Of a DNA stretch of 64,000 nucleotides, positions 691 to 34,499 are shown one piece after another. A program made the position numbers and the translations under genes. Source of the DNA: a virus. Within the stretch, counting starts at the first letter, position 1. Every line of letters begins with the position of its first letter. The stretch covers positions 1-64,000 of the IMG/VR virus record IMGVR_UViG_3300027741_000022; one strand, 5' to 3'. The notes beneath the pieces are model-generated. The model did not search any database. It was not told the DNA's origin and saw only the letters and a list, made by a program, of their open reading frames with translations.

Positions 691-1356
691 ATGTTTAGCT
701 CTAGATTTAATCACTTTAAGAAAATATCTTTAGTGTCATCACCGACACCAACGCCAACATCTAGTGCTATCCCAGTTACTCCAACGACAACACCAACAAA
801 AACACCCACACCAACACCAACACGAGCTGGTTCTTTTACTCCTGTTGCTTTTGTAATAACTTCCGGCACATCCAGAACTGTACCAACTGGAGCCACAAGC
901 ATGAAAGCTTGGGTTATTGGTGGCGGTGGTGGTGGTGCATACGATAGTAGTGGTTGTCAAGGTAACTCAGATGGATTTGATGGTGGAGAATCTGTAAAAA
1001 CTTATACTGTTACGGGCGGTGCTACTGTATCTTATGTTATAGGAGCAGCAGGAGTAAAGTCAGATTTAAATACATCAAATCCAACCAATGGCGGAAATAC
1101 AACATTAACATACGGAGGAGTTACAATTACAGCTACTGGAGGTTCTCAAGGCGTCACTGCTCCACTTCTAGCAGGTAGCGGTTCAGGTGGAGATTTTAAT
1201 AGAACATTTAATGCCGGAGGTGTTCTTGATTTCCAAGGAAGACTTGCTGCTATTACACTTTCCGGAAGTAGTCTTACTGCTGGATTTAAGGGAGTTTCAA
1301 CCTCAACCTCTGCCACGAACGGATCTCCCGGAGGTTTAGTGTTATACTTTACCTAA
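691..1356 (+). CDS. Pro/Thr-linker + glycine-rich virion-associated protein
   Basis: PTPTPT linker followed by TVPTGATSMKAWVIGGGGGGA, a Gly-rich domain typical of phage tail/fibre accessory proteins. Confidence 0.6.
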   Translation: MFSSRFNHFKKISLVSSPTPTPTSSAIPVTPTTTPTKTPTPTPTRAGSFTPVAFVITSGTSRTVPTGATSMKAWVIGGGGGGAYDSSGCQGNSDGFDGGESVKTYTVTGGATVSYVIGAAGVKSDLNTSNPTNGGNTTLTYGGVTITATGGSQGVTAPLLAGSGSGGDFNRTFNAGGVLDFQGRLAAITLSGSSLTAGFKGVSTSTSATNGSPGGLVLYFT

Positions 1357-2465
1357 TTGGGCAGACAGATATAATCTGGAACACTGGTAAAATTATAAAT
1401 CTTAACTTCTCTAAAAACATCTTGTAAGATTTGATCATCATATAATTCTACCCCAGCTTGTAGCCATGATCGTGTCATAGCAGAATTATTCTGTTCATTA
1501 GATGTGGTCCATTCAGTTGGATTAAGATAATAATAGGCTAAATATTTCATAGCTTTCTTAATACTTCCCTTTCCAGTTTCGTCTTCATAATTCCAAACAT
1601 TAATCCCTAAAGAGTTGGCTATAGTAGCTAAATTTACAAGTAGAGTTAAATTAAAATTACTATAGTGTCTATTTTTTACTCTGTCCATCTCTAATACCTG
1701 CTTACCGTCATTATCTATTTGAGCACTTAATAAAGCTGTTAAATTATTCTCTAAATAAGTTTTCGCCTCAACTTCTTTTCCACAAGCACAAAGATAAGAA
1801 CACAATTGTTTCATGTATGATGTTTTAATGTTGTGACTATAACCAGACTGAAGAACTCCTCTGGGGCTGGTTTTGAACCAATCGCTCAATGAGTCAAACC
1901 ATGAAATCATGCTATTTTCTAATTCTGTTGTCCAATTTACACTTGGTTTCAATAACTCTATTAAATCTGGAAATATAGATAAATTATTGGTATCAATAAT
2001 TGCTCCTCTAATACGCAAATCATCCATACTATTGCCAATGACTATACCGCTATAGGTCAAATCTGGATTCATTCTAGTATTTTCGTCTATAAAAAAAGTA
2101 TTAATAGATGCTATGGCTTTTAGTGCGTAATCTTCATTCTTAGTAAAATAATACAAAAGACATAAAGGGTATAATAAGGAAAACATAGGTCCCAAATACT
2201 TATTATCTGAACTATTACGAGACTCAGTATTTCTTATTCCGTCTATTCTTATGTATGGAAATCCTGTTGACGAATTTGGGTCTGGATGATAATATGGGGC
2301 TAAACTGGTGAAATTATTAATTCCAGTCTTATGTTTTATTTCTGAAGTATTTTGTGTGATACTTGGTAGTTCTAAAGCTAGAATATTTCCACATTGTTGC
2401 TGATAATTAGCAACTTCTTCAAGAGTTAGCTGATCCATTCTTTGTTTATTAAAAATTAATAGCAT
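1353..2465 (-). CDS. Alginate-lyase-family (PF05426-like) protein, paralog 1
   Basis: Motifs APYYHPDP..GFPYIRIDG, TRMNPDLTY, QIDNDGKQVLEMDR..RHYSNFNL match the family pattern; the canonical NNH is replaced by HNI. Confidence 0.75.
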   Translation of the reverse strand: MLLIFNKQRMDQLTLEEVANYQQQCGNILALELPSITQNTSEIKHKTGINNFTSLAPYYHPDPNSSTGFPYIRIDGIRNTESRNSSDNKYLGPMFSLLYPLCLLYYFTKNEDYALKAIASINTFFIDENTRMNPDLTYSGIVIGNSMDDLRIRGAIIDTNNLSIFPDLIELLKPSVNWTTELENSMISWFDSLSDWFKTSPRGVLQSGYSHNIKTSYMKQLCSYLCACGKEVEAKTYLENNLTALLSAQIDNDGKQVLEMDRVKNRHYSNFNLTLLVNLATIANSLGINVWNYEDETGKGSIKKAMKYLAYYYLNPTEWTTSNEQNNSAMTRSWLQAGVELYDDQILQDVFREVKIYNFTSVPDYICLPN

Positions 2466-2485
2466 GATTTTCCTTATATGATTAT

Positions 2486-2499
2486 AACTATATATAGTT
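2486..2499. promoter_or_regulatory. 14-bp palindrome AACTATATATAGTT between divergent genes (candidate bidirectional late promoter)
   Basis: Perfect palindrome in the intergenic gap; analogous palindromes at 18589 and 34850. Confidence 0.45.
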
Positions 2500-2536
2500 T
2501 AAGGTTCTAAGCTTAATTACATAGATAATATACATA

Positions 2537-3481
2537 ATGGGAATATTTATAAATAATAAAAACTCAAAAAGACTTCTCAGAAGATCTGGTGGTAAAAATT
2601 ATATAAAATATAGTGCAGGTAGTGCAACGCCTACACCAACGAATACACCCACTCCCACCCCATCCTCGGCTCCTTCAAGCTTCATAACTCTAGGATATAC
2701 AGCAGGATCCTGGAGTGGAACCGGAACAGCAGCATCAAAATATACAACCAGCAGTGTTTTTTCGCCTCGTCCTTCTGGCGGAGCATCAGAATTGTTGCCA
2801 TTCTCTTTTACAGCAACTTCTAATTGTGAATTCTACCTGAAATGGAGCCACTCTGGTACTAGCGACGATAATTATAGAGCACAAACAACACAAATATTGA
2901 TAAATGGAAGTCCCGTAGATACTGATCCATTGAGTTTTGGGGTTAACGGCGTTGCAACTGACATCCAAGGATTCATTTCCAATTCAGTAGAGTATCCAAT
3001 CTGGTTGACAGCAGGAGATGTCGTTACTGTAAGAGTTTATAGAACCTTGATAGACCATGGCCCCATTGACACATACACCAGCGTGTCGGCATACGCCGTG
3101 GCCAGAACAACATCACCTATCACTCTAGTACAAAATGTTCGGGGAGATCCATCGTGGACTGGATTGGGGAATGTAGATTCTAAGTACTCTATGTCTGGAT
3201 CTTTTATTACATCTTATTTTAGTGCAACTTTACCCAATAAAAAAGCTACTTTTGCAGTCAAAAAAACTGGGACATTTTATGCCACAGCAACAGTTAGCAA
3301 CTATCCAGACGACAATAGTGATGCCTTAGACATTTATAAAAATGGAGTATACTCTGGTCAAACTTTTCCTGAAGGAACAACAGCAGGAACAAGGTCAGTA
3401 TCTGTGTCGATTGGGGATATTATTGAGTTAAGTGGATATGGAAATGCCACGGTATCAAATCTATCAGCATGGGTAGTATAA
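2537..3481 (+). CDS. Pro/Thr-linker beta-rich putative virion protein
   Basis: Long ORF; PTPTNTPTPTP linker then two similar Ser/Thr/Gly-rich beta segments (GSWSGTGTAASKY / PSWTGLGNVDSKY). Confidence 0.5.
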   Translation: MGIFINNKNSKRLLRRSGGKNYIKYSAGSATPTPTNTPTPTPSSAPSSFITLGYTAGSWSGTGTAASKYTTSSVFSPRPSGGASELLPFSFTATSNCEFYLKWSHSGTSDDNYRAQTTQILINGSPVDTDPLSFGVNGVATDIQGFISNSVEYPIWLTAGDVVTVRVYRTLIDHGPIDTYTSVSAYAVARTTSPITLVQNVRGDPSWTGLGNVDSKYSMSGSFITSYFSATLPNKKATFAVKKTGTFYATATVSNYPDDNSDALDIYKNGVYSGQTFPEGTTAGTRSVSVSIGDIIELSGYGNATVSNLSAWVV

Positions 3482-3483
3482 TT

Positions 3484-3984
3484 ATGAATATCAAAATATG
3501 TAATGTAAATCTACCAAATATAAATTATGAATGGATTGAAAAACATTCTACTACTCCTCCATTTCCAGAAATAAATATTGATGATTTTTTGTTGACCAAG
3601 CCACCACAAACTGAAGTTTTTAGGGGTAGAGGTTGTAATACTAATTTCTTTCTTGGTAAAAAAGCTTATGAAACAACAACTAGGAAAATAAGTGGTCGAA
3701 TGATTTATCCTCCAAATGGATATATGAATTGGCACACTAATGGAGATTGCCCCGGCACTAGAATGTATGCTTCTTGGAGTGAAACAGGAGATAGCGGTAT
3801 GATGTTTTTGGATAAAGATGGAATTCCTTATATAGATCAAGATATTCAAGGCTGGAACATTAGAACATTTGACTGTCCAACTTGGCACAACGTGTGGTCA
3901 AGATGCTGGAGAGTTAGTATAGGATGGAATTTAAAGGAGGCCCCAGATGCGATGGAAAATTTGGTATTCCCTACCGAACAATAA
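3484..3984 (+). CDS. Cupin/2OG-Fe(II)-oxygenase-like protein
   Basis: YPPNGYMNWHTN ... WHNVW...RVSIG resembles the HxD/N...H...RxS double-stranded beta-helix layout. Confidence 0.5.
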   Translation: MNIKICNVNLPNINYEWIEKHSTTPPFPEINIDDFLLTKPPQTEVFRGRGCNTNFFLGKKAYETTTRKISGRMIYPPNGYMNWHTNGDCPGTRMYASWSETGDSGMMFLDKDGIPYIDQDIQGWNIRTFDCPTWHNVWSRCWRVSIGWNLKEAPDAMENLVFPTEQ

Positions 3985-4537
3985 AAATTTTTGTTTTACC
4001 AGCAGATCATGCACCTCATCAATAGGGCTGATGGCAGTCAAACAGTTCTATCCAGAACGAATACCGGATCATCCAGTAATAGATGGACAAGGACACCGAC
4101 TAAATGATTATGTAGTGGGAGAAGACCTTCCTGATGGTTGTGCCGTAATGATAAGAAACCCAGTTGAAAGATTTATATCATTATTATGGAGAATGAATAT
4201 CTCTCCCGAAAAAGCTTTTTGTTGGCTATATTGGTTTCATGGTCTGGGAAACAAACCAGAACATATAGACCGACACGATTTAGAATATTGTGGAGGCACT
4301 TCATGGTATCATTTAACTCCAGTAACTCATCTAATAAATGAAAAAAGTAAACTATTTTTATTTCCAGATGTTGCTGGTATGGCTAATTATTTAGAAATTA
4401 AAACTCCAATAGAAAAAATTAATTCTAGTATAACAACAGAAAAAATAACTTTAACACCAGAGCAAGAAGATAAAGTTAGACAAATTTATTGTGATGATAT
4501 GATCTTGCTTCAGGAACTAGAAAACAGGGGGTATTAA
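3947..4537 (+). CDS. Sulfotransferase-like protein (Sulfotransfer_2 type)
   Basis: IRNPVERFISL matches the 3'-PAPS-binding RNP.R..S motif; the N-terminal loop (FTSRSCTSS) is divergent; AAAGGAGG RBS upstream. Confidence 0.55.
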   Translation: MRWKIWYSLPNNKNFCFTSRSCTSSIGLMAVKQFYPERIPDHPVIDGQGHRLNDYVVGEDLPDGCAVMIRNPVERFISLLWRMNISPEKAFCWLYWFHGLGNKPEHIDRHDLEYCGGTSWYHLTPVTHLINEKSKLFLFPDVAGMANYLEIKTPIEKINSSITTEKITLTPEQEDKVRQIYCDDMILLQELENRGY

Positions 4538-4694: not shown

Positions 4695-5903
4695 TCAAGG
4701 AACGGGAGCACTCGACTCACTCCACCCGGAACTATTTATATCTGATGAAAGTTGATTATAGCCTGATGTATTTTGTTTTGTTGTCATATTTTGAATAAAA
4801 CTCGGGGCTGATCCTGTCCATTTAACAAACGTCAAAGATCCATCTGCACTTTTTCTAAGTGTTGTTTCATCTGTTTCAAGAATATAATTAAAATCTATTT
4901 TGTTTATTTCACTTGAATTAAATGCAACAAAGCTTCGATTGGCATAAAGATCTTCGACACATGAAGTTTGACAAGCCGAGCAGTCTGCCGCATTTGCACA
5001 CCCGTTCGCAGATTGATCATATTCGTTGACGTATTGCTTTGAAGGACAAGAACAATTGCCATAACAATCACTGCTTGATAATTGCCATTCATGCAAACTG
5101 TAATTGTAATTATAATTACAATGTCCGCAGTCCGCTAAAGCAGTAAAACCAGTGTTTATTGTTTTTCCCACAGATGCATTGTAATTCTGTAGCACTTCGG
5201 CAGCATTAAGCCCTCTATTATATTGTCTGAATATCATAACCTTTTGCCTAGATGGCTCTAGTGCCGTAGAACTGTTTGCAGATATTCTCAAATTATAATT
5301 ACTTCCGAAATTTACACTATTATTAGCTGTAGCCTGCAGAACACCATTTCTATAAAATTTCATCACCCCAGATGTTCGGGTATACACCAATTGTGTCCAT
5401 GCATTTTTTATTGGTGTTGAATAAAAGAGTTCTGCACTGCTTCCACCTGTTGGCATATATTGCCAAAAAAGACTGCCTGGGAGATAGTGAGTCAACCCGT
5501 TAAAAGCTCCTGTTTTAAAAGTATACAATCCTTTGGAAAAAACTTTGCTCCAAAGATTGCCTCCTGTTTGTAGATAAACCCAAATTTCGTAGGTAAAATT
5601 AGAACTCAAGCAACTATTGATTGTACTGTTATTTGTTATTTCTGCATATTCATCAATTCCATCAAAAACAAAAAACTTTCCATCATGTATAACACCATTG
5701 TAAAGTTTTGCGTTATTGTTATATCCGCTTAAGTCATACCAAGTAATGCTTGCCGAAGCACTTGCGACGTATTGAGTTGAATCTAAATGTACTATTAGTC
5801 CATTTATAACTATATCTTGATTATATAAAATTTTAATAGTACCGGATCCATCCCTGTATATGTAATTTTTCCCATCATTTTTATGTTGTATATTATATGT
5901 CAT
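4695..5903 (-). CDS. LamG/concanavalin-A-like domain virion protein with Cys-rich linker and C-terminal phage domain
   Basis: GLIVHLD...WYDLSGYNNNAKLYNG...FVFDGIDEY and YNRGLNAAEVLQNYNA are typical of T4-like LamG proteins. Confidence 0.75.
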   Translation of the reverse strand: MTYNIQHKNDGKNYIYRDGSGTIKILYNQDIVINGLIVHLDSTQYVASASASITWYDLSGYNNNAKLYNGVIHDGKFFVFDGIDEYAEITNNSTINSCLSSNFTYEIWVYLQTGGNLWSKVFSKGLYTFKTGAFNGLTHYLPGSLFWQYMPTGGSSAELFYSTPIKNAWTQLVYTRTSGVMKFYRNGVLQATANNSVNFGSNYNLRISANSSTALEPSRQKVMIFRQYNRGLNAAEVLQNYNASVGKTINTGFTALADCGHCNYNYNYSLHEWQLSSSDCYGNCSCPSKQYVNEYDQSANGCANAADCSACQTSCVEDLYANRSFVAFNSSEINKIDFNYILETDETTLRKSADGSLTFVKWTGSAPSFIQNMTTKQNTSGYNQLSSDINSSGWSESSAPVP

Positions 5904-5910
5904 ATTTTAT

Positions 5911-8466
5911 TTATTGATTTTGGTAGATAAAACACAGCTCAGAAGTTGAAAAGTTTGTTAAACATTCATCGACTGCTCTTTTCACACCAGGAAAATAATC
6001 ATGTTCTCCAACATAGTAATCATGACCTGCCAATATTCCATTTTTCTTTATTTTTGGCAACCAAGTTTGAATGTCTTTTTTTACATCTTCATATTCGTGT
6101 GAAGCATCTATAAAAACAAAATCTAATGAATTATCTTCAAATTGATTCGAAGCTTCAATCGAATTATTTCTTATTTTTTTATAATACTTATCTAAAGGCT
6201 TCATATTCTCAGTAAAAATATCATACAAAGAGTCTATTTCTTTTGAATCTTTGTGCTCAAAGCTTCCTTGCCATGTGTCTATGCAATAAAATTCTATATT
6301 CTTGTCAGAATTTGCAATTTCCACAGCCATAAAAGCAGAAGATTTCCCTTTCCACGATCCAATTTCAACAAATTTACTCCCAGATGGAAATCTACAAACC
6401 ATATCTCTGTATAAGCTTGGATATGTAAACCAATCTTCTCCGAATTGAGTAGATTGATAAATATGAGGTATTTTTTTAATTATATTTTTAAGACCAACAT
6501 ATTGTCCTTTATTTTTCCACCAATTTATTATCCAGTAATATGATTCCCAGTGGTATTCTCCTTGACCATTTATTTCTGTGGCGTCTTTCCCAAAATATGT
6601 GGATTTTACATTTTTAACGTCTTCGACAAATATAGGAATATTATAAACTTTACCAATACCAGCAAAAAGTATGTTTTCTACTATTGGAATTAGATTTGTT
6701 TCATATATGTCTAAATGAAAACTATTTTCATCGATATAGTACCTGTCTATTATTTCCTTAGCGTATTCTCTTTTTATGACATAAGCGGCAGCGCCCCAAT
6801 CATCCCACTCTCTTTCTCTTAATTCTATATTTTTATTATCAGGTCGAATCCAAGTTAGTTGAACACATTCCCAATCACACGGAAGATTATTAAAAAATTC
6901 TTCCCAAGTAAAATCCCAATAATTTACAGGATCCAGAGACAGATCATCTTCGCAAAAAAATGCATACGCTTCATTTGTTGAATCATACCATTTTTTGATT
7001 GCTTTTATGTGAGATGTTGTAGGTCCTTTACTATTTTCATGCAAACTATCGACAAATCTACCTGTCAAAATATGATCATATTCGTGATATCTTTTAAATA
7101 TATGGGGAGTTAAATTTTTAATTTCGTATGAAGAGAACTGATTTATGAGATTTTCTCTTCTTTCAACTGATTCTTCAATTCCAATAAAATTAACTTTTGG
7201 AAAATTTGCAAGTTTATTTACTTTTTTTTTAAGCATCAAATCTTCCACTAAATTTATGTCGGATGTAGGGTACGATGATAGTTCTTCGAATATAGATTCG
7301 TCAATTAAATCTTTATGAATCCACCAATCTTCGAAGTTTGAACCTTCATTTGGCGCAATATCATTGAAAATAAGTGTATAACCAAGATTCCTCAAATAAC
7401 GCCTAGATTTCTCTCTATATTCTCCTGTTATATCAACATAATGATCATGCTCATAAGTGATTGCTCTAAACTTATATTTATTAAAAGGAATTAATAGCAA
7501 CGCTTCGAATGTGTTCTTAGAAGGCTCTATATCCAACTGCAGATAATCGATAATATTTGAAGAAAAATTTTCATCAAGCATCTTTTCATAATCTAATTTT
7601 AGAGCATTTGCATTTATACATTTGTTTTTTCTTTCTGCTTTGTGCATATCCGCAAGCTCTTGTTTGAATTCTATGCCAACTCCTGTCCAATCAAAATCTC
7701 TTTCCAATAGAGCAGTATTACTATTATGGAATGAATGTGCCGAGCCTACCTCAAGGTAAGTTCCATTTCTTTTTCCATTTAAAGCAGCCAATACAAATAA
7801 ATCTTGGCAAGCTTGAGAAAAATTCTTTTCTATTTTATCACATCCTTCAAATCTAAATCTTAAATCATATTTTGATTTATCATATTTTACTTCACTTTCA
7901 CTTACTGATCCGGAGCCTAAAGTAGATAGGTTATTTTGTACCAAGTGGTAATAATTATCGTTAAGTTTGCTGCCATATTCATCTTTTAATTTTCTGAAAA
8001 GAATCCTGGATTCTTTAGGCTTCCCGTACCACCAAGAGCAAACAGCCTTTTGAAAAATTAACATATATTTTGACTGATATTCAAAAGATGTGTTAAATTT
8101 TGATGGCTCACAATCTGATAAATCCAAACCAAGAGATGCATACAGATAACCATCCATCCAATTTTGTTTTCTTTCGTAGAATTGACTTAGAAAAAAATAC
8201 GCCTCAGGATTCTTCGGCTTTATTTTTAATCCACTTTTTAATAGGTTTTCACATGTGTAATCCCTGTTAGATAAAGAGTAGTAGCATAAATATAGTCTTA
8301 ATAAGCATTCATAAGCTAAATTTTCATCCTTGGTTAGTTCGGCGCATCGCAGATAGTAGCTGCAGGCAGGAGATAGATGTTTTTGACTTTCATACCAATA
8401 TGCCAAATTAAAATTAGCGATATCGTTTTCTGGTTCTTTTATATAATCTGTAAGTTCTTTATTCAT
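5911..8466 (-). CDS. Four-domain fusion: TPR-like + FkbM-like methyltransferase + GT25-like glycosyltransferase + Methyltransf_24-like methyltransferase
   Basis: NFSQACQDLFV..GTYLEVGS..DYLQLDIEP (FkbM-like); SVERRE..SHIKAI..FCEDD (GT25-like); FVEIGSWKGKSS..DFVFIDASHEYEDVKKD..GILAGHDY (MT24-like); helical N-terminus. Confidence 0.75.
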   Translation of the reverse strand: MNKELTDYIKEPENDIANFNLAYWYESQKHLSPACSYYLRCAELTKDENLAYECLLRLYLCYYSLSNRDYTCENLLKSGLKIKPKNPEAYFFLSQFYERKQNWMDGYLYASLGLDLSDCEPSKFNTSFEYQSKYMLIFQKAVCSWWYGKPKESRILFRKLKDEYGSKLNDNYYHLVQNNLSTLGSGSVSESEVKYDKSKYDLRFRFEGCDKIEKNFSQACQDLFVLAALNGKRNGTYLEVGSAHSFHNSNTALLERDFDWTGVGIEFKQELADMHKAERKNKCINANALKLDYEKMLDENFSSNIIDYLQLDIEPSKNTFEALLLIPFNKYKFRAITYEHDHYVDITGEYREKSRRYLRNLGYTLIFNDIAPNEGSNFEDWWIHKDLIDESIFEELSSYPTSDINLVEDLMLKKKVNKLANFPKVNFIGIEESVERRENLINQFSSYEIKNLTPHIFKRYHEYDHILTGRFVDSLHENSKGPTTSHIKAIKKWYDSTNEAYAFFCEDDLSLDPVNYWDFTWEEFFNNLPCDWECVQLTWIRPDNKNIELREREWDDWGAAAYVIKREYAKEIIDRYYIDENSFHLDIYETNLIPIVENILFAGIGKVYNIPIFVEDVKNVKSTYFGKDATEINGQGEYHWESYYWIINWWKNKGQYVGLKNIIKKIPHIYQSTQFGEDWFTYPSLYRDMVCRFPSGSKFVEIGSWKGKSSAFMAVEIANSDKNIEFYCIDTWQGSFEHKDSKEIDSLYDIFTENMKPLDKYYKKIRNNSIEASNQFEDNSLDFVFIDASHEYEDVKKDIQTWLPKIKKNGILAGHDYYVGEHDYFPGVKRAVDECLTNFSTSELCFIYQNQ

Positions 8467-9445: not shown

Positions 9446-9455
9446 TAATATAGTT
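9446..9455 (-). promoter_or_regulatory. AACTATATTA motif 6 nt upstream of ATG
   Basis: Identical 10-mer also lies 4 nt upstream of the portal ATG (13784..13793). Confidence 0.4.
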
Positions 9456-15036: not shown

Positions 15037-15220
15037 TAGTTTTTGGGAAGATTTTCTTTTGGTTTTGAATAACAGTAGCGGTTTATCTTCTTTGTTGGGT
15101 GTTCCAAGAAGCAAAATTATCACTTGGAATAAAAAAATAAAAGAAGCTTTGAAAGAAAACAAAGAAAAAGAAACAAATATTTCAAAAAAGCATAAAATAA
15201 TTAAAACCGGTCAACACTAG
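14963..15220 (+). CDS. Small hypothetical protein (MGKFEKYLEE...)
   Basis: ORF track frame, start reassigned. Confidence 0.5.
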   Translation: MGKFEKYLEEKEINNIIETGKNINDSFWEDFLLVLNNSSGLSSLLGVPRSKIITWNKKIKEALKENKEKETNISKKHKIIKTGQH

Positions 15221-25297: not shown

Positions 25298-26866
25298 TCA
25301 AGTGTACACTATGATCATTCCGCAGGGTTGTCTGCCCGATATATGTGATGGATCAAATCCATCATTAGGACAGCCTAAGTCGTAAGTTCCCGGTGAGCAC
25401 ACGCAATCCCGGCAAGCGTCAGGATTACCATCTCCGTTGTAATCTACCGTTGCGGAACATTGATTATAATCATCTCCTATTCTTCTTTTGCTTATTGCAT
25501 AATTTGGAGGGTTGGAGCAATCAAACGCGTCTATCTCCACCAAGAAATAATATTGTTCATTTGGAGTTGAAGTTATATTAAACAAATTCAGCAAGATGGA
25601 ACTGCTCACCTCGGTGCAGACAGTCCCGGTAAATGGCAAGCCGGTCTCAGTATTTATTGCTGCAGCACAAACTGCAGGTGAAGTTGACCAATTAAAACCA
25701 GGTCCAATAGATTGCAACACTTTGGTGGCTACTTGCCCCCAATTAGTATTGGTGCCATAATATGTAACATTAACCACTCCTTGAATTCTGGCTCCGTTTA
25801 AATCTGACGGTGATCCTGTATTCCAAGACACAGATATTAAATCAATATTATTATATGGACTGCTGTTTCCTGTTCCATTGCCTAATCTTATCCCTAAATG
25901 TGGGAAGCTAGATGTAGCGGTAGTGTTTACGCCTAATTGTATGTCACAGCCCCCCGGCGAAGGGCAACCAAGGCAAAGCTCTCCTGCAACAGATCCTGAG
26001 CCACCACATGATAATATTCCATCAAATGCTGGTGTTGCACTTGGTGTTGGTCCTGGCGTAGCTGTGGGCGTAGCTGTGGGCGTAGCTGTGGGCGTAGCTG
26101 TGGGTGTGGCTGTGGGTCCAAGTGTAGCTGTAGGTCCAGGTGTAGATGTTGGTCCAATTGTTGCCGTCGCCGCCGGCGTAGCTGTCGGTGTAGCTGTTGG
26201 TGTAGCGGTAGAGGTCGGAGTAGGTGTTGGTGTCGGAAAACTATATAGTACCCAATTTGGATCGCTACCGCCAGGAAGAGTAGATATAAAAACATACGAC
26301 TGATTCGGTACCAGTTGCCTTAAAAGATTCATTCCATTTGATGCGGCATTCCAACTTATAAAGCCAGTGCCAGCAGTGTTAGTTCCAAATATAGTATCAA
26401 CTTTATTATCACGTATAAACGGTAAGTCATTGTTGATTGTCACAGGCATAGTACTATTATTATTAATTGATCCCGCATGACCTGCAGTTCCTGGTTTTCC
26501 ATCTCCTCTAAACATTGCTATTTGTTTTTGGTACGTTATAGTTTTTGCATAAGGAAGTTGGGATGTTTCTGTGTATAGCGTATAAGATCCCGTTCCTGGA
26601 TTATTTCTTATATAATATCCATAATATTCTGTGAATTCTTTGAGCTTATCGTTTAAAGGCGTGTTGGTCCAAGATTTATAATTATTTGCTTTGCGTGTTC
26701 CTGGAAATGCGGCGTCTGTTGTTAGGCTAAGACCATAAACTATTTTTGCGTTGCTCAAATTTGGAAAATTCGTCAAATCGATAGATGTGCCCTTTACAGA
26801 GGGGTTTCTGGTGAGAGGTGAGCCAGAGAAATACTCAAATATAACGATTTTTTTATCTATATTCAT
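25298..26866 (-). CDS. Pro/Thr/Ala-repeat protein with Cys-rich C-terminal domain (putative virion protein)
   Basis: [18 protein letters not shown]... linker (12-bp units at about 26053..26110). Confidence 0.55.
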   Translation of the reverse strand: MNIDKKIVIFEYFSGSPLTRNPSVKGTSIDLTNFPNLSNAKIVYGLSLTTDAAFPGTRKANNYKSWTNTPLNDKLKEFTEYYGYYIRNNPGTGSYTLYTETSQLPYAKTITYQKQIAMFRGDGKPGTAGHAGSINNNSTMPVTINNDLPFIRDNKVDTIFGTNTAGTGFISWNAASNGMNLLRQLVPNQSYVFISTLPGGSDPNWVLYSFPTPTPTPTSTATPTATPTATPAATATIGPTSTPGPTATLGPTATPTATPTATPTATPTATPGPTPSATPAFDGILSCGGSGSVAGELCLGCPSPGGCDIQLGVNTTATSSFPHLGIRLGNGTGNSSPYNNIDLISVSWNTGSPSDLNGARIQGVVNVTYYGTNTNWGQVATKVLQSIGPGFNWSTSPAVCAAAINTETGLPFTGTVCTEVSSSILLNLFNITSTPNEQYYFLVEIDAFDCSNPPNYAISKRRIGDDYNQCSATVDYNGDGNPDACRDCVCSPGTYDLGCPNDGFDPSHISGRQPCGMIIVYT

Positions 26867-26967
26867 TTTTGTTATTCGTTAAAAATTGCAATGTATTATA
26901 TATGTTGTAATTTTTGAATATTTTTACAAATTAACTACATTAGATTAAACTTTAAAGGATTAATTTA

Positions 26968-28215
26968 ATGAAAAATTCCATATTTGTGCAGATTGCAGCA
27001 TACAGAGACAGTCAGCTTACTCCTACTTTAAGAGATATGATTGAAAAAGCTGAAAACCCTCAAAATTTAAAAATATGTATATGTTGGCAGCATTCTAAAG
27101 ATGATGCTTGGGATAATTTGGATGAATTTAAAAACGATGATAGATTTATAATATTAGATACAAATTATAAAGATAGCTTGGGTGTTTGTTGGGCAAGAAA
27201 TGCAGTTCAACAGAAATATAATGGAGAAGACTACACCCTGCAAATAGACAGCCACCACAGGTTTGTTGAAAATTGGGATACTGAATGTATAAAGATGTTG
27301 GATCAACTTAAAGAAAAGGGTCATAAAAAACCATTATTAACATCATATGTCCCCAGTTATGATCCTGATAATGACCCAAAAGGTAGAGTTCAAGAACCGT
27401 GGAGAATGAACTTTGATAGGTTTATTCCAGAAGGTGCAATATTCTTTTTACCAGGACATATAGAAAATTGGAAGAATTTAACTGAACCAATTCATGCAAG
27501 ATTCTATAGTGCTCATTTCTGCTTCGCCCCAGGATCATTTTGTGTAGAAGTTCCTCATGATCCAAATTATTATTTTCATGGAGAAGAAATCAGTGTTGCA
27601 GTAAGAGCTTATACTTGGGGTTATGACCTTTTTCATCCACATAAAATAATATGCTGGCATGAATACACAAGAAAAAATAGAACAAAACAGTGGGATGATG
27701 ATAAAAAGTGGTATGAAAAAAATGAAAGATGTCACCTAAGAAACAGAAAACTTTTCGAAATGGATGGAGAAAAGAAGGATATAGACTTTGGAATATATGA
27801 TTTTGGAAAAGAAAGAACTGTTCAAGATTACGAAAGGTATGCTGGCATCAACTTTAAATTAAGAGCCATACAAAAACACACTCTTGATTTAAATAACCCA
27901 CCAAACCCAATAATAGCAGATGAAAAAGAATATTTGGATTCTTTTCTTAAAATATTTAAGCACTGTATAGATATTCAACACGATCAGTTAAAATATGGTG
28001 ATTATGATTTTTGGGTTGTTTCTTTTGAGTTAAATGACGGTACTGTAATCAACAGAAAAGATGCTGATGAAAATGAAATCAGATCTATAAGAAGTGACCC
28101 CAGCTATTGTAAGGTTTGGAGAGAATTTTCGTGCGAAAGAAAGCCTGAGAAGTGGGTTGTTTGGACGCACGGAAAAGATGGTGAGTGGAAAGAGAGATAT
28201 GAAGGAAAACTGTGA
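26968..28215 (+). CDS. GT60 / PF11397-like (Gnt1-type) GlcNAc transferase
   Basis: SIFVQIAAYRD, GVCWAR, LQIDSHHRF, FYSAHFCF, VPHDP..YFHGEEI, WHEY. Confidence 0.82.
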   Translation: MKNSIFVQIAAYRDSQLTPTLRDMIEKAENPQNLKICICWQHSKDDAWDNLDEFKNDDRFIILDTNYKDSLGVCWARNAVQQKYNGEDYTLQIDSHHRFVENWDTECIKMLDQLKEKGHKKPLLTSYVPSYDPDNDPKGRVQEPWRMNFDRFIPEGAIFFLPGHIENWKNLTEPIHARFYSAHFCFAPGSFCVEVPHDPNYYFHGEEISVAVRAYTWGYDLFHPHKIICWHEYTRKNRTKQWDDDKKWYEKNERCHLRNRKLFEMDGEKKDIDFGIYDFGKERTVQDYERYAGINFKLRAIQKHTLDLNNPPNPIIADEKEYLDSFLKIFKHCIDIQHDQLKYGDYDFWVVSFELNDGTVINRKDADENEIRSIRSDPSYCKVWREFSCERKPEKWVVWTHGKDGEWKERYEGKL

Positions 28216-28454: not shown

Positions 28455-29468
28455 ATGATCGGTGTCATGCTCAAGGAAGCTTTCGATAAATATTCTGAAG
28501 ATGGGTGGATAATTTCCAAAAGACACCCGATATTTCCAATTACAATATATAATTATTCAATTAAAACCCAATACGAAGAACATTGGGATGATATAACCTT
28601 GCAAGCACGAGGGTTAGTGCTTGATGACTATGGCGAAGTAGTCGCAAGACCTTTTCGCAAATTTTTTAACCTCAACCAAGGTCGTTTTGTTCCCACAAAT
28701 GAATTTGAAGTTTATGAAAAATATGACGGATCTCTTGGTATTGTTTTTTATTATGAAAATAATTGGCACATAGCTACAAGAGGATCTTTCACTTCAGAAC
28801 AGTCTGTTTTGGGCAAAAGCTTTTTAAATCGATACGACCTGGCTACCCTAGAAACAGACAAAACCTATTTATTCGAAATAGTAGGTAAAAACAATAGAAT
28901 TGTAGTTGACTATGGTGACCTTGAAGACTTAGTTTTATTGTCTGCGTTTGATAACAAGAGTGGAAAAGAAATTCATCGCAAAGAATTAGAGAACATTGGT
29001 TTTAGACTGTGTGAAAAGTATGATGGCATAAATGACTACGGAACTCTTGCAGACACAATAGGGCAGAATAGGGAAGGATACGTAGTAAGATTTTCAAACG
29101 GACACAGAGCGAAAATAAAAGGCACAGAATACCTCAGACTCCACAAAATTATCACAAATCTTTCTACAACCGCTATTTGGGAAACAATATCTACCGGTAA
29201 AAGCGTTCTCGAATTGCTTGAGGGTTTCCCAGATGAGTTTTACAATAAAGTAAAACAGTATGAAGGGGAATTGTTGTCCAAATATAAAGAATTGAAAGAT
29301 TTTTATACAAAATTATTTGATGAAATTAATGAAAAAGAGAATAGAAAGCTATTTGCAGAAACTGCCAAAAAATATGAAAAACCTTCTATCCTCTTCTCAT
29401 TACTAGATAAAAAAGACATATCCCAAATGATATGGGATTATATCAAGCCGGAATTTTCAAAGATCTAG
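28455..29468 (+). CDS. T4 Rnl1-like RNA ligase
   Basis: ARGLVLD, RPFRKFFN, motif I EKYDGS, FEIV, EGYVVRF, AKIKGTEYLRLH. Confidence 0.88.
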   Translation: MIGVMLKEAFDKYSEDGWIISKRHPIFPITIYNYSIKTQYEEHWDDITLQARGLVLDDYGEVVARPFRKFFNLNQGRFVPTNEFEVYEKYDGSLGIVFYYENNWHIATRGSFTSEQSVLGKSFLNRYDLATLETDKTYLFEIVGKNNRIVVDYGDLEDLVLLSAFDNKSGKEIHRKELENIGFRLCEKYDGINDYGTLADTIGQNREGYVVRFSNGHRAKIKGTEYLRLHKIITNLSTTAIWETISTGKSVLELLEGFPDEFYNKVKQYEGELLSKYKELKDFYTKLFDEINEKENRKLFAETAKKYEKPSILFSLLDKKDISQMIWDYIKPEFSKI

Positions 29469-29893
29469 CTGCCTAGCCAATTAAGAAACTCTTTAGATCC
29501 CATATAACCGGAAGATCTTTTAACTGTATCTTCGTTTTTATCAATTATTAAAAAGCTTGGCAAAGTTTTTACCTTAAACTTTTCTTTTACATCTTTGAAT
29601 TTTTTATCATCCACATCTATCTTTAGGACCACAAAGTTTTTAACCAGATATTTCTCTACATCTTTATCTTTGAATGTAGTGTTTTTCATTTTAACACAAT
29701 AGCCGCACCAGTCAGCTCCAAAGTAAACAAAAACTTTTGTGTTCGTAGATTTGGAAAGATCCAATGCATCTTCGTATGTTTCAACCTCTCCAGGACCCAT
29801 TTTTACAACTGATACTATCTCATCTTCTGCAAAGCACAATACGCTTGCCATTATAATAAAAGACGTTGCTAATATTATCATTAAATTTTTCAT
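29465..29893 (-). CDS. Exported thioredoxin-family protein
   Basis: Signal-like N-terminus; FGADWCGYCVKM; VKTLPSF. Confidence 0.85.
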   Translation of the reverse strand: MKNLMIILATSFIIMASVLCFAEDEIVSVVKMGPGEVETYEDALDLSKSTNTKVFVYFGADWCGYCVKMKNTTFKDKDVEKYLVKNFVVLKIDVDDKKFKDVKEKFKVKTLPSFLIIDKNEDTVKRSSGYMGSKEFLNWLGS

Positions 29894-29978: not shown

Positions 29979-31826
29979 ATGTTGTTCAAAGAATGGTTAT
30001 TATTAAACGAAAATATAGAATCAAATTTCGATACCTACCTATCTAATTTGGTTAAATACGCTAAGCCTGAAGAGAAAAATCAATTAGATTCTCATCGTAA
30101 AATTTCTGCATACTTACAAACCCCAGAACAAGAAAGACCAAATTTACTTTGGTTTCAAAAATCTATTATAATTCAAGTTTTAAAAGAAAAACACCTTGAA
30201 AATTTTAATTGGTTCAGCTTTAGTATTGGATATTTATTATCTAAAGTTAGCATGTTTAAAGAAGATCTTGAATTAGCCATAGATGTCACTAAAAAAAGAA
30301 TAGACAGCAGAGAGTTGCCAAAAAGTGAAATAGGCTCTAAGGGTTGGTTTAAAATTGGACAAGAATCTAAAGAAAAAGTTGAAGAATACATAAAAGCAAG
30401 TCAAGAATTAAGTAATAGACAAGAACGAAAATTAAGAAAAAGCGGAGAAACCTTAGAAGATGATAATAAATTAATACAGTTGGTAGCCACAGATGAAAAT
30501 TTAAAACTTTATTTCCTCCCTGCAATCGGGAGCGGAACAGAATACGGGCTTCCAAAAGATGAAAATGAAATTAAATCTAGAAAAAGAGTTTTATGTAGCT
30601 ATGGCAAGGGAACAAAATGGTGTACAGCAGTTCCAGATGGTGATTGGCATGAAAGTTATTTGGGCAATAACATTTATATAATTCACGAAAATGATAAGCC
30701 AAAATATCAATTTGTAAATTGTTTAGATGAAGGCGAAGACAATCATCAATTTATGGATGCCGAAGACAATCCCGTTAAAGAATTAGACATAAAGTATTAT
30801 AACTTCTTGAAAAAATATGCACCTGGGGCAAGCCATTGTTATGAAATTAAGGTGAAGTTTGGTATATCAAATTTTTTGAATTCAACAATTAGTGATGATA
30901 TCAAAAAAGAAATATCAGGTAAAAATCTGGCGGAATTGCTTAATGTTTCCTACAGAAATGATTTTGAAAAAATAACATCAATTGTCAAAAATCTTAATAT
31001 TTCTTTTGACAGCGACAGCATTTTTAACTTTCTTTGGAGTGTAAGTCCATTACACACAAGCGATCCTATTATTCGTAATTTGATTGCTAAAAATATCAAT
31101 AAATTAAGTGGCGCGGAAATCCATGATTTAATCACTCATTCTCCACCAATAGGATATGAGGAAACTTATTCTAATAAAACAAGATTAACAACAGATGAAA
31201 TGATAGAAATATTGGGTCATAAAAATTTAATGAAACTCAGTTCATCTCTTATAATTTCTATTTTATCTAATTCCACAAATAGATCAGAAATGGCAAAATT
31301 ATTGGGAAAAGAAGTTTTGAATAATATTAGAATATTTGATATTACAAATTGGATGATTCACGCAGTAGGTGATATAAAAGAAATACTGGACATTTTCAAG
31401 CCAAATTCTTTGAAAGCATTAACATCAAGCCATATTGATGTTATATTCATAAGTGAGTATCTTAGAGCGAAACATTCTCAAGAAGATATGGAGTATTTGG
31501 TTAAGGAATTAATGGATGTAGGTGTAGAATTCGGCGTGAGGTCAGTTGATGCAATACTTCTTAATACAAAAACTGGTAAAGATGATTATATTGAAAGAAT
31601 GATTAAAATACTTGGTAAGAAAAATGTAAGTAAACTATGGTACGAGTCTGTTCATAATTTATTTGATGAAATTTTTGCCAAAAAAGGATTTAGAGGACAA
31701 AAAGAATTGGCTGAATTATTGAAAGATTATTATGTTCACCCTGAATTATCTGGCGAGGATACGACCGTTGGTAAAATGGCAGACTGGGCAAGAATAGACA
31801 ATCTAATCAACAAGCACCTAGACTAA
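29979..31826 (+). CDS. Large hypothetical phage protein (MLFKEWLLLNE start; CSYGKGTKWC motif; helical repeats)
   Basis: ORF track; start reassigned to the second Met. Confidence 0.6.
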   Translation: MLFKEWLLLNENIESNFDTYLSNLVKYAKPEEKNQLDSHRKISAYLQTPEQERPNLLWFQKSIIIQVLKEKHLENFNWFSFSIGYLLSKVSMFKEDLELAIDVTKKRIDSRELPKSEIGSKGWFKIGQESKEKVEEYIKASQELSNRQERKLRKSGETLEDDNKLIQLVATDENLKLYFLPAIGSGTEYGLPKDENEIKSRKRVLCSYGKGTKWCTAVPDGDWHESYLGNNIYIIHENDKPKYQFVNCLDEGEDNHQFMDAEDNPVKELDIKYYNFLKKYAPGASHCYEIKVKFGISNFLNSTISDDIKKEISGKNLAELLNVSYRNDFEKITSIVKNLNISFDSDSIFNFLWSVSPLHTSDPIIRNLIAKNINKLSGAEIHDLITHSPPIGYEETYSNKTRLTTDEMIEILGHKNLMKLSSSLIISILSNSTNRSEMAKLLGKEVLNNIRIFDITNWMIHAVGDIKEILDIFKPNSLKALTSSHIDVIFISEYLRAKHSQEDMEYLVKELMDVGVEFGVRSVDAILLNTKTGKDDYIERMIKILGKKNVSKLWYESVHNLFDEIFAKKGFRGQKELAELLKDYYVHPELSGEDTTVGKMADWARIDNLINKHLD

Positions 31827-32668
31827 TGTTTTTTAGGAAAAAATTTGCCTATAAAGTTGTGATATGGACATTTTGGTTTGTCTTCTCCATTTAACAACCT
31901 CTTTTTTTCTCTAAAATAAGTTGTTGAATCTTTTGTTAGCGACCCATCTGATGACAATAACTGTTTTCCGCCATTTTCAAATTTTTTCTTGTTATAATTT
32001 AGCCAATATTTGAACACATAGTTTGCTTTTTTTGTATTTCTGTTTATATGCTCTTCTTTTATATCCCAGTCTTTTGTTGATTCTCTTTTAACTGGTATTA
32101 ACTGCGCTATTGGCAATTCTTTTGTTATTGTTATTTGTTTGTCGTTAGCATCACAGATTAAATTTATCCATATATCATAATGCATCCAATCTGTTTCCAA
32201 AATTGCTTCCATCACATGGTAATCTGTCCTTGGAAAATTTATCGGGCTTCTTATTTGTAAGCAATATCCTGGTGGTGTTTCAAAAATAAGACCTGTCCAT
32301 ATTTGAACTACGTTTTGTTCGGCAGCTCCCCAGGTGAATTTTGTCCTACCTGTGTCCGGCATACACCACTTTTCCACAACAGATTTATCAGAAGGTTTAA
32401 CCAAAGATTTAATTGTAGCGTAATCTTCGTTTGAATATTTTTCTGTATCATAAATAAATCTATTCCCATCGTATACAAAATGCATGTCCACAGGAGGATA
32501 CAACCAAAAACCGAATTGATTTGCGGATGTGTATGGTCCACACCATTTAACCGCAGCTTCGTTTGCGGTTCCCAAACAAGTTTTCTCGGCTTGTTTTATT
32601 TTGCAAGCTTGGGAATGAACTCTCCAAACATTGAGATTATTCATGTAATTTCTCAGAGGGTTGATCAT
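31823..32668 (-). CDS. DUF6065-like hypothetical protein
   Basis: CLGTANE...GFWLYPPVD...FETPPGY...EAILETDW pattern. Confidence 0.5.
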   Translation of the reverse strand: MINPLRNYMNNLNVWRVHSQACKIKQAEKTCLGTANEAAVKWCGPYTSANQFGFWLYPPVDMHFVYDGNRFIYDTEKYSNEDYATIKSLVKPSDKSVVEKWCMPDTGRTKFTWGAAEQNVVQIWTGLIFETPPGYCLQIRSPINFPRTDYHVMEAILETDWMHYDIWINLICDANDKQITITKELPIAQLIPVKRESTKDWDIKEEHINRNTKKANYVFKYWLNYNKKKFENGGKQLLSSDGSLTKDSTTYFREKKRLLNGEDKPKCPYHNFIGKFFPKKH

Positions 32669-32715
32669 AGTTTACAGAGATTGTATAATTGAATCCAACT
32701 AGGGAATTAAAAATT

Positions 32716-33786
32716 ATGATAATTGACCAAGAAACAAAGCTAGATTTCGATCATGTGAGAATTGTGCCACAGAGAACTACTCTCGAAAGCAGAAGCGAAG
32801 TCTCACTTGAGAGAAATTTTAAGTTTTACCACAGTCCCAGAACTTGGAGTGGAATACCAATAATTTGTTCCAATATGGTTCCTTTGACATCAAAAAAAAT
32901 GGCTGTCAAGCTTGCTGAGCATAAAATTGTGACCGCTCTGCATAAGTATTATAAGACTGATGAATTGACAAATATAATTAAAGCTGCTGGAGTCGATTAT
33001 GCTTGGGTTAGTATTGGTAAGTCTGATGAAGATATAAATAAATTAAAAGAAATTAAAGAAATAATTGGCACTTCTCCCAACATTGTGATAGATGTTCCCA
33101 ATGGCTATATGGAAAGTTTTGTTAAATTTTGTGAAAAGGTGAGAAATGAATTCCCGGAAAGCATAATTTGTGCTGGTAATGTCACCACTCCCGAAATTTG
33201 CGAAGAGCTTGTTATTCATGGTAAGGTTGATATTTGTAAGATTCAAATAGGACCAGGTTCTCAATGCGAAACCAGAAAAATGACTGGTGTTGGTTATGGA
33301 ACATTTTCATGTGTCTCAGAGTGTGCCCATGCCGCCCACGGGCTAAGAGCTGCTTCTGGTAGGTTGGGACTAATAATGAGCGATGGAGGCTGTAAAGACC
33401 CAGGAGACATTTGTAAAGCAATTTGTGGAGGAGCTGATTGGGTCATGATAGGTGGAATGTTTGCAGGAACTGATGAGTGTGAGGGCGAATGGGAGTATGA
33501 ATACGAACCCAACGCAGAATTTAATCTGAACAACTCATCTTGCACTAAAAAAACTTATCTTACTTTTTATGGAATGAGTAGTCATTATGCTCAAGAAAAA
33601 CACGGAGTTGGTAAGAAAAAATATAGAGCATCAGAAGGAAAGATTTCTAAAATTCCTTACAAGGGACCAGTAGAAGATGCTGTTCAAGAAATACTTGGTG
33701 GAATAAGAAGCTGCGGTGCGTACATTGGCGCAAAGCACCTAAAAGATTTCAGTAAATGTGCAAAGTTTGTCAAGATAGCCAGGTAA
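32716..33786 (+). CDS. guaC: GMP reductase
   Basis: KLDFDHV, IDVPNGY, IGPGSQCETRKMTGVG, SDGGC..PGD..KA..GGADWVMIGGMFAG, FYGMSS, YRASEG. Confidence 0.92.
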   Translation: MIIDQETKLDFDHVRIVPQRTTLESRSEVSLERNFKFYHSPRTWSGIPIICSNMVPLTSKKMAVKLAEHKIVTALHKYYKTDELTNIIKAAGVDYAWVSIGKSDEDINKLKEIKEIIGTSPNIVIDVPNGYMESFVKFCEKVRNEFPESIICAGNVTTPEICEELVIHGKVDICKIQIGPGSQCETRKMTGVGYGTFSCVSECAHAAHGLRAASGRLGLIMSDGGCKDPGDICKAICGGADWVMIGGMFAGTDECEGEWEYEYEPNAEFNLNNSSCTKKTYLTFYGMSSHYAQEKHGVGKKKYRASEGKISKIPYKGPVEDAVQEILGGIRSCGAYIGAKHLKDFSKCAKFVKIAR

Positions 33787-33788
33787 TT

Positions 33789-34499
33789 ATGAGTAATGCA
33801 GTTGTTTATTTATTAAACAATAATAATGTCTATTTAAAAATGGCTTCTAATAGCATTTCTATGCTTAGAAGTTTTAATGATAAAATCAAAATAGTTTGTT
33901 TGTGTACCTCAAAAATAAATCTACCAGAGTCTCTAGATGTAGAATTGATTGAGGTCAAGGACATAGATCCTGAATATATTCATGTCAACAGACAACATAT
34001 GGGCAGTCTTGAATTTGAAAATATCCTATACATTGATAGTGATACCTTTATTTTTGATGATGTTCAAAAAATATTTGATTACTATCAAAAAGATTTTGTT
34101 GGCTGTGAAAATAGTTGGGCATATAAACAGAACTTTAATTTGTTTAAGCCGACCAACGGTGGCGTTCTTTTATTTAAAAATTTTGCTCACAAAAAAATAT
34201 ACGAAGACTTTAGTTATAAGCTAAAGTATATGAATATTCTCTACAAAGATATTTGGGATTGGATGGTCTCTATCAATAACACATACGTCAGAGAAGAATT
34301 TTTAATAAGCAAGATAGTAGAAGAAGAAAAAATAAATAGATGTTTTTTTGAAAAACAACATGTTAAAATTCCTGAAGAACACAAGGATGTTAAAAACATC
34401 AACACAATAATATTTCATACATTTACAAGCAATTGGTCCATTGTAAATAGAGAAGTTTTTGGAATTAAAATCAAAAAAATAAAACCTAGATTAGTTTGA
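33789..34499 (+). CDS. GT-A fold (GT8-like) nucleotide-sugar transferase
   Basis: ILYIDSDTFIFDDV (DxD), NGGVLLF. Confidence 0.65.
   Translation: MSNAVVYLLNNNNVYLKMASNSISMLRSFNDKIKIVCLCTSKINLPESLDVELIEVKDIDPEYIHVNRQHMGSLEFENILYIDSDTFIFDDVQKIFDYYQKDFVGCENSWAYKQNFNLFKPTNGGVLLFKNFAHKKIYEDFSYKLKYMNILYKDIWDWMVSINNTYVREEFLISKIVEEEKINRCFFEKQHVKIPEEHKDVKNINTIIFHTFTSNWSIVNREVFGIKIKKIKPRLV

Follow-up and report, generated by a model that had tools for sequence, protein, structure and literature searches.

A GT60-family glycosyltransferase genetically coupled to Pro-Thr linker proteins of large phages, a candidate mucin-type O-glycosylation system

The GT60 enzyme and the Pro-Thr linker proteins

IMG/VR record IMGVR_UViG_3300027741_000022 is a 187,644-bp linear contig (GC 35%, CheckV completeness ~75%) of an uncultured jumbo phage, and the window analyzed here, the first 64 kb of the contig, is the structural end of that phage genome. 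The window encodes a soluble glycosyltransferase (GT) of family GT60 (26968-28215, + strand) together with five proteins that carry proline-threonine (PT) linkers, which are tandem repeats of the form (T-P-T-x)n; two more PT-linker proteins are encoded elsewhere on the contig. An earlier note on this DNA, made from the sequence alone, proposed that the phage primes, extends, methylates, and sulfates O-glycans on its own linkers. The enzyme, the linkers, and their association in other genomes were analyzed as follows.

The product of 26968-28215 matches the GT60 family profile PF11397 (E = 1.7e-75) with 255.2 bits against a curated cutoff of 21, and it matches PHROG 24687 (2.9e-172). The gene is divergent to the PT-linker gene at 25298-26866 and separated from it by 101 nt, which is the arrangement described in the earlier note. 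The enzyme consists of a GT-A catalytic domain (residues 1-~330) followed by an FN3-like β-sandwich C-terminal domain of ~90 residues. The residues D94-S95-H96 are invariant in 31 homologues, in an alignment with a mean column identity of 73%, and are predicted to be the DxD/DxH-type metal-binding motif.

A sequence search of the enzyme against PDB chains gave nothing useful (the best match was beta-lactoglobulin, E = 0.15), and a fold search was therefore needed. The AlphaFold model of the enzyme has a pLDDT of 92.5, and ranks 1-47 of its Foldseek PDB list are all polypeptide GalNAc-transferase (ppGalNAc-T) entries. Structural alignment of the model using VIA-align returned Z = 21.5 for GalNAc-T1 (281 residues, 3.5 Å) and Z = 20.4 for TgGalNAc-T3 from Toxoplasma, and the best generic GT-A enzyme scored 16.3. 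In the model, the fold is closest to that of the animal mucin initiators, the ppGalNAc-T enzymes. The GT60 catalytic domain is the bacterial and phage counterpart of the mucin-type O-glycosylation initiators. The Pfam model does not extend over the last ~90 residues, which are nonetheless conserved; their structural matches are only weak and FN3-like (Z up to 7.0), and the ricin fold is absent from the matches listed in this weak search. GT60 enzymes are polypeptide α-GlcNAc-transferases related to GT27 and are the mucin-type initiators in Dictyostelium and Trypanosoma cruzi (PMC8724618). The protist enzymes have no ricin-type lectin domain, a cytosolic GT60 member modifies Skp1, and Gnt1 is cytoplasmic and acts on hydroxyproline (Hyp) (PMC8724618).

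The five window genes with PT(A/K)T repeats named in the earlier note were all recovered, and the two others on the contig bring the set to seven proteins with dense Ser/Thr/Pro tandem-repeat domains of the acceptor type. The tracts of the seven proteins together comprise 573 residues, ~213 of which are Thr, and at the DNA level they repeat in tandem with periods of 12, 30, or 90 nt. PT-rich windows of 20 residues occur 335 times in the proteome versus 0 times in 20 shuffles. Transmembrane segments and signal peptides were found in none of GT60, the PT proteins, and the neighboring enzymes; any modification would therefore take place in the host cytoplasm.

The PT proteins differ in the domains that accompany the tracts. 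The protein encoded at 691-1356 (+ strand) has its tract at residues 15-53 and a Gly-rich C-terminal domain (PF21722, Gly_rich_2, 2.9e-6), and the protein encoded at 2537-3481 (+ strand) has its tract at residues 27-51 and a β-rich domain with no Pfam or PHROG match. The product of 15217-17073 (− strand) is composed of an N-terminal domain, tracts within residues 391-454, and a Cys-rich C-terminal domain, and it has a weak PHROG tail fiber match (3.7e-4). A 1286-residue protein encoded at 18655-22515 (+ strand) contains an M43 metallopeptidase domain (PF05572), a PT tract, middle domains, a DUF642 domain (PF04862), and a long PT tract; its three PT tracts hold 258 residues, including 105 Thr. 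The PT protein divergent from GT60 (25298-26866, − strand) has its tract at residues 205-282 and a fast-evolving Cys-rich C-terminal domain for which a set of 1.8 billion representative proteins contains only 5 relatives and which has no detectable relation to the Cys-rich C-terminal domain of 15217-17073. The two proteins outside the window are encoded at contig positions 97830-98798 (− strand) and 171339-171950 (+ strand), and their tracts have 34 and 85 residues when the two proteins are listed in that order.

Coupling of GT60 and PT linkers in phages and bacteria

Searches of phage genomes by tblastn show that GT60 is rare, with 4 positives among 50,697 phage records: XacN1, Xoo-sp13, CM1, and RAS14. 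The TPTxTPT coding pattern is found 51 times in XacN1, 51 times in Xoo-sp13, 22 times in CM1, and 22 times in RAS14, and the reversed-pattern controls are zero. The XacN1 tracts are distributed over at least 12 large proteins, several of which adjoin the tail sheath gene. Close relatives of the enzyme are encoded on at least 135 IMG/VR contigs, and 47 of these were searched whole. TPTxTPT was found in 39 of the 47, in 20/21 contigs over 100 kb, and in 5/5 near-complete contigs, with reversed-pattern controls near zero. The 15 reversed-pattern matches in the window's own contig come from a (Glu-Asp)n repeat within 41309-42166 and not from PT tracts; this gene (+ strand) encodes a 285-residue protein with a perfect C-terminal (Glu-Asp)n tract arising from a (GAGGAT)n repeat at ~41960-42070.

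Gathering IMG/VR controls by their portal genes gave mostly short contigs, 5 of them usable, and cultured large phages were then taken as controls. Eight cultured GT60-negative large phages (2.0 Mb in total, including the nearest sheath relatives of XacN1) have zero TPTxTPT matches. The closest record to the contig in the phage collection, the GT60-negative uncultured phage LR756511 (595 kb, portal identity 50%), likewise has zero, and a single match was found among nine portal relatives of 56-262 kb that lack GT60 (8/9 without). TPTxTPT is present in 44/52 GT60-positive versus 1/18 GT60-negative genomes and contigs (Fisher p = 2e-9, a value that overstates independence because many contigs are related or incomplete). 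The closest large portal relatives, G048 and G049 (loci L089 and L090), carry PT tracts on contigs that lack GT60. They were set aside and rejected as counter-examples because, in the direction of GT60, both contigs stop 10-13 kb past the portal, short of the expected GT60 position. Assemblies there seem to be broken by repeat-rich fiber and PT genes, hiding the GT60 status of the relatives.

The reverse test started from IMG/VR records chosen by the (TPTx)4 DNA pattern alone. GT60 was present in 17/38 of these records and in 12/18 of those over 100 kb, with 29%-64% identity to the window enzyme. The co-occurrence of GT60 with PT-repeat genes in large phages, which the earlier note had put forward as a check of its proposal, is therefore positive in both directions.

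The two genes are also associated in position. In 58/80 phage loci, GT60 has a PT- or PS-rich gene no more than 10 kb away. The immediate upstream neighbor of GT60 is PT-rich in 24-27 of the 80 loci versus ~8% of other nearby genes (p = 2e-8), and the immediate downstream neighbor is never PT-rich. The PT-rich upstream neighbors fall into at least 13 homology groups that have no detectable similarity outside the repeats, and apart from L006 and L007 the loci have almost nothing but GT60 in common with the window. The GT60/PT pairing is therefore not a single inherited block. L006 and L007 are the nearest relatives of the window locus (GT60 81-82% identical), and they keep the divergent PT-gene/GT60 pair with the globular part of the PT protein at 27% identity.

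Bacterial GT60 homologues occur in many phyla. PT-rich genes account for 8/121 direct neighbors of bacterial GT60 (8/66 loci) versus 5/684 other genes (p = 1.4e-4). Twin-arginine (Tat-like) leaders, such as NRRKALKTILG, are present on the PT-rich neighbors in L112, L117, L135, L153, and L167, and these putative leaders suggest that the neighbors bearing them are exported after modification in the cytoplasm. The analysis thus shows the repeats, the identity and fold of GT60, and, across many phages and a number of bacteria, its statistical and positional coupling to PT genes. Strong as this genetic coupling is, it does not by itself prove that the PT proteins are substrates of the enzyme.

Neighboring genes and genomic setting

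A glycosyltransferase cluster lies at 5.9-11.3 kb of the window. One of its genes (5911-8466, − strand) encodes a four-part fusion of a TPR region, an FkbM-like methyltransferase, a GT25-type part (residues ~414-669), and a Methyltransf_24 O-methyltransferase (residues 700-817). The GT25-type domain matches PHROG 2835 (glucosyltransferase, 5.4e-38), and PF01755 is found in its homologues, in which fusion to FkbM/MT24 methyltransferases is frequent. The Pfam GT25 profile PF01755 has no direct match in the contig, and the GT25 assignment consequently rests on the homologues and PHROG 2835. Further genes of the cluster encode a 326-residue protein without a Pfam or NCBIfam family (8459-9439, − strand) and a soluble GT2-like glycosyltransferase with no transmembrane segment (10569-11276, − strand; PF10111, 1.8e-9). 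The GT2 and GT25 genes called in the earlier note are thus both present. It also called two methyltransferase domains, of which Methyltransf_24 is clear and the FkbM-like domain is only a weak match (E = 0.098).

Stand-alone homologues of the fusion parts are found beside GT60 in L022, L051, L075, and L011. The GT25-like part occurs as a separate gene directly downstream of GT60 in L051 and L075. L022 has a homologue of the N-terminal part next to a 57% identical homologue of 8459-9439, both ≤8 kb from GT60 and a PT gene. Such separate genes near GT60 in other phages moderately support a connection of GT60 with the cluster and do not imply that all of the enzymes build one joint glycan.

Other sugar-handling genes are located in the same region. 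Two paralogous alginate-lyase-family proteins without signal peptides are encoded on either side of the glycosyltransferase cluster, one at 1353-2465 (− strand; PF05426, 9e-52; soluble, with no transmembrane segment) and one at 9454-10572 (− strand; PF05426, 1.8e-46). The pair may serve as a depolymerase or in glycan trimming. A ConA-like lectin/glucanase (Laminin_G_3; PF13385, 1.3e-11) with a Cys-rich C-terminal part is encoded at 4695-5903 (− strand).

Searches with Pfam and NCBIfam, both at permissive thresholds, and with PHROGs gave no match for 3469-3984, 3947-4537, 8459-9439, or 33756-34499, and PDB sequence searches with 3469-3984 (profile) and 8459-9439 were empty or trivial. The sulfotransferase-like and GT8-like genes of the earlier note are accordingly retained as leads that come from protein-atlas neighbors. 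The atlas neighbors of the sulfotransferase-like protein (3947-4537, + strand) are viral Sulfotransfer_2 clusters (0.96), and its structure matches with TM 0.68-0.70. The atlas neighbors of 33756-34499 (+ strand; 0.96), some of which belong to PF03407/PF01501, point to a possible GT-A nucleotide-sugar transferase (GT8/PF03407-like), and a homologue of this protein sits near GT60 in L007. The conserved small protein encoded at 3469-3984 (+ strand) has an invariant WHTN...H and 12 homologues without Pfam domains. It may be the gene that had been called oxygenase-like, and that reading is not supported: Pfam, NCBIfam, PHROG, and PDB gave no match for the protein, and no PF13640 protein was found in the contig. 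The search for this prolyl-hydroxylase family covered the 187.6-kb contig, which is ~75% complete, and the control genomes did match.

A different set of genes accompanies GT60 in XacN1-like loci. The commonest companion, present in 71/80 phage loci, is a 557-residue HtrL_YibB-type putative glycosyltransferase. It has two domains, HtrL_YibB and a weak TAGT-like part (loci L008-L085, for example L035:14133-15806). PLOD-type GT domains and a carbamoyltransferase frequently accompany it in a conserved glycosylation island near DNA polymerase. These common partners (HtrL_YibB-type, carbamoyltransferase) are absent or unclear in the present contig, where a search for HtrL_YibB (PF09612), run without a positive control, gave no match.

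The structural region of the window is marked by a T4-type portal gene (11281-13779, − strand; PF07230, 6.8e-72) that is interrupted by an intein (PF14890, 2.4e-12). The intein spans residues 115-329 and is N-terminal to the conserved portal core. The 3′ part of a collagen-like tail fiber gene is located at 2-685 (+ strand; PF01391, 2.2e-9; PHROG tail fiber families down to 1.7e-14). The encoded protein is Thr/Ser-rich, as the earlier note held, and contains GTVGTTGSQ repeated 7.7 times and encoded by a perfect 27-nt repeat. The contig start (1-208) falls within this collagen-type repeat.

Two other genes near GT60 keep their positions in the nearest relatives. Two genes from GT60, 29465-29893 (− strand) encodes a thioredoxin-like protein that has a hydrophobic anchor or signal at its N-terminus and whose position is kept in L006 and L007; it may be related to the many Cys-rich late proteins of the phage. 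A DUF6065 protein (31823-32668, − strand; PF19541, 4.7e-15) has a 73% identical homologue at the equal position in L006, and a PDB sequence search with it was empty or trivial.

The 101 nt between GT60 and its divergent PT gene (26867-26967) form a putative shared promoter region, recognized by a TATATA motif. This TATATA-centered, partly palindromic element recurs between divergent late genes in their promoter regions, for example at 2466-2536 and 18586-18654, and may be a late promoter element. It is found upstream of GT60 and four PT genes and likewise upstream of ~30/292 contig genes. On this count the element is too weak a basis for inferring co-regulation of GT60 and the PT genes.

Proposed glycosylation of PT linkers, alternatives, and known systems

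The explanation that we favor, with confidence somewhat above even, is that GT60 O-glycosylates Thr residues of the PT linkers in the cytoplasm. Late in infection, the enzyme would transfer a sugar onto many Thr of the (T-P-T-x)n linkers in at least five window proteins and seven in the contig. By family precedent, this sugar would be α-GlcNAc derived from host UDP-GlcNAc. Glycosylation would precede the assembly of the PT proteins, or their release at lysis, and the sugars would stiffen the linkers and shield them from proteases. The GT25/O-methyltransferase fusion and the GT2-like, possible GT-A, and sulfotransferase-like genes may extend or decorate the primer sugar. In this scheme we infer the acceptor (Thr of the PT tracts), the donor sugar, the extension and tailoring, the virion location, and the benefit.

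Purified XacN1 virions contain at least two Schiff-positive (periodic acid-Schiff, PAS) glycoprotein bands, and the authors suggested ORF328 or ORF334 as their source (PMC5852040). ORF334 is a GT60 homologue. The part of the earlier proposal that concerned priming is strengthened by the co-occurrence in both directions, the adjacency, the ppGalNAc-T-like fold, and the XacN1 PAS bands; its oxygenase part found no support, and extension, methylation, and sulfation by the neighboring genes are conjectural. The literature search turned up no description of PT-repeat modification by a GT60 of phage or prokaryotic origin; phage virion glycosylation itself is already known from mycobacteriophages, according to work cited in PMC12619734.

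Several points count against O-glycosylation of the linkers by GT60. The co-occurrence and adjacency are correlative, many of the contigs are related or incomplete, and those of G048 and G049, the closest portal relatives, end at the expected GT60 site. GT60 is missing from 7/11 near-complete PT-repeat records, so PT linkers can exist without it, and a directly adjoining PT gene is missing from 53-56 of the 80 phage loci, the number varying with the PT criterion, and from 58 of the 66 bacterial loci. The earlier note treated the PT proteins as virion proteins. The sole secure virion-type protein is the collagen-like ORF 2-685, with its solid tail fiber matches; the tail fiber match of 15217-17073 is weak, and the PT proteins are candidate virion proteins. 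Among the tailoring genes, support is weak for the sulfotransferase-like, GT8-like, and FkbM-like proteins and lacking for the oxygenase. We know of no glycan, glycopeptide, or enzyme activity from this phage or from any prokaryotic or phage GT60. The XacN1 authors neither identified the glycoprotein bands nor tied them to ORF334 (PMC5852040), and XacN1-like loci place GT60 near a family-B DNA polymerase and a carbamoyltransferase, an arrangement compatible with other targets.

Phage glycosyltransferase clusters are usually interpreted as acting on non-protein glycans (PMC7824862). In that case GT60 and the other enzymes would build or modify a host capsule, lipopolysaccharide (LPS), or exopolysaccharide for superinfection exclusion, receptor masking, or release, and the PT tracts would be unmodified flexible spacers. 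The two alginate-lyase-family genes and the lectin-like gene in the window cluster fit this explanation, as do the complete phages that carry PT linkers without GT60 and the majority of GT60 loci that have no directly adjoining PT gene. We nonetheless consider it unlikely. It leaves unexplained both the two-way genome-wide coupling of GT60 to PT repeats and the adjacency of GT60 to at least 13 unrelated PT protein families, the GT60 fold is specifically closest to polypeptide GalNAc-transferases, and every characterized GT60 named in PMC8724618 acts on proteins. The ORFs of the glycosyltransferase cluster also have no transmembrane segment; no search by name was made for flippase, polymerase, or polyprenyl-phosphate transferase families. 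The acceptor could instead be a protein without PT tracts, namely the collagen-like fiber, a capsid or tail tube protein, or a host protein. The collagen-like fiber is Thr/Ser-rich, mycobacteriophage glycans are located on the C-termini of capsid and tail-tube proteins (as cited in PMC12619734), and the glycoprotein bands of XacN1 could come from any such protein. The statistical link, in which collagen-like genes were not among the covariates, is specific to PT-repeat genes, and it is the PT tracts that fit the Thr/Pro-rich acceptor type of protist GT60 and GT27, making another protein target distinctly improbable.

The Pro-rich character of the tracts and the precedent of Dictyostelium Gnt1, a cytoplasmic GT60 that acts on Hyp (PMC8724618), would also accommodate a Skp1-type reaction in which PT-tract Pro is hydroxylated first and GT60 then adds GlcNAc to the hydroxyproline. 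The hydroxylase family PF13640, which the control genomes match, has no match in the contig, an absence that is not proven at ~75% completeness, and ORF 3469-3984 has no oxygenase signal; we regard this order of events as very unlikely. Least credible is glycosylation of modified bases in phage DNA for restriction evasion, to which we assign hardly any weight. It would account for the position of XacN1-like GT60 a few genes from the family-B DNA polymerase and carbamoyltransferase, and for the weak TAGT-like match (E = 0.0024) of the common GT60 partner protein. DNA glycosylation is weighed against because XacN1 DNA is cut by BssHII, NaeI, and SpeI and because the contig has no thymidylate-synthase/dCMP-hydroxymethylase (ThyA-type) homologue (PF00303; controls match). 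In addition, the window GT60 stands among structural genes and has a fold closest to polypeptide transferases. A search for PF12851 (TET/JBP) was uninformative, as the controls had no match either.

If GT60 does glycosylate PT linkers, large environmental phages would routinely modify their own proteins with a mucin-type initiator, and Pro-Thr linkers, which are very common in phage and bacterial surface proteins, would mark O-glycosylation sites. We judge the chances to be evenly balanced for the wider proposal that phages and bacteria of several phyla possess cytoplasmic mucin-type O-glycosylation. A soluble GT60 with an FN3-like docking domain would coat the (T-P-T-x)n linkers of phage fiber and accessory proteins and, in bacteria, those of Tat-exported proteins. 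The PT linkers, commonly regarded as inert spacers, would be glycosylation cassettes, and the system would be the prokaryotic equivalent of the eukaryotic GT60/GT27 initiators, which might have evolved from it. GT60/GT27-type polypeptide glycosylation would then be no eukaryotic specialty. Such a system would bear on phage stability and adhesion, on how the immune system recognizes therapeutic phages, on how mucin-type glycosylation arose, and on virion proteomics, since standard searches miss glycopeptides. The idea is directly testable in the four cultured phages XacN1, Xoo-sp13, CM1, and RAS14.

The phage enzyme shares PF11397, the GT-A fold, the DxH-type motif, and Thr/Pro-rich repeats as the likely acceptor with the GT60 enzymes of Dictyostelium and T. 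cruzi (PMC8724618). The protist mucin initiators are Golgi membrane proteins of the secretory pathway, whereas phage GT60 is a soluble protein of the bacterial cytoplasm that has an extra conserved ~90-residue FN3-like C-terminal domain and whose activity, donor, and acceptor are putative. Animal GT27 enzymes (GalNAc-T1, T2, T4, and others) are the best structural matches (Z 21.5, 20.4; Foldseek E ~1e-10). They have the same type of metal-binding motif and initiate dense O-glycans on Ser/Thr/Pro repeats. Sequence identity to GT27 is only 11-14%, and the donor sugar and compartment differ. A ricin-type lectin domain is present in GT27 enzymes, and the C-terminal domain of the phage enzyme resembles a small β-sandwich instead (best Z 7). 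The Skp1 pathway of Dictyostelium and Toxoplasma (PhyA and Gnt1) is similar in that the GT60 is soluble and cytoplasmic and its target protein is modified before arriving at the site where it functions. It differs in requiring a prolyl 4-hydroxylase, which was not found in this contig, and in having one acceptor residue rather than long repeats.

XacN1 has a GT60 (ORF334) that is 47% identical to the window enzyme, TPTxTPT linkers in at least 12 large proteins, and virion glycoproteins, and its authors did not connect ORF334 with PT repeats (PMC5852040). It is a distant phage with another gene order, in which GT60 adjoins the carbamoyltransferase and is near the DNA polymerase. Mycobacteriophages, in the work cited in PMC12619734, encode glycosyltransferases that decorate their own structural proteins in the cytoplasm; the glycans described there are on capsid and tail-tube C-termini, and the candidate acceptors here are internal PT linkers of fiber-like and enzyme-bearing proteins. 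Giant viruses provide a further parallel, although they infect eukaryotes and differ in both their glycosyltransferase families and their acceptor sites. The glycosylation of Mimivirus fibers is virus-encoded. So is that of the PBCV-1 capsid protein, as cited in PMC5852040, and in these viruses, as proposed here for the phage, viral enzymes glycosylate virion proteins in the cytoplasm and independently of the host.

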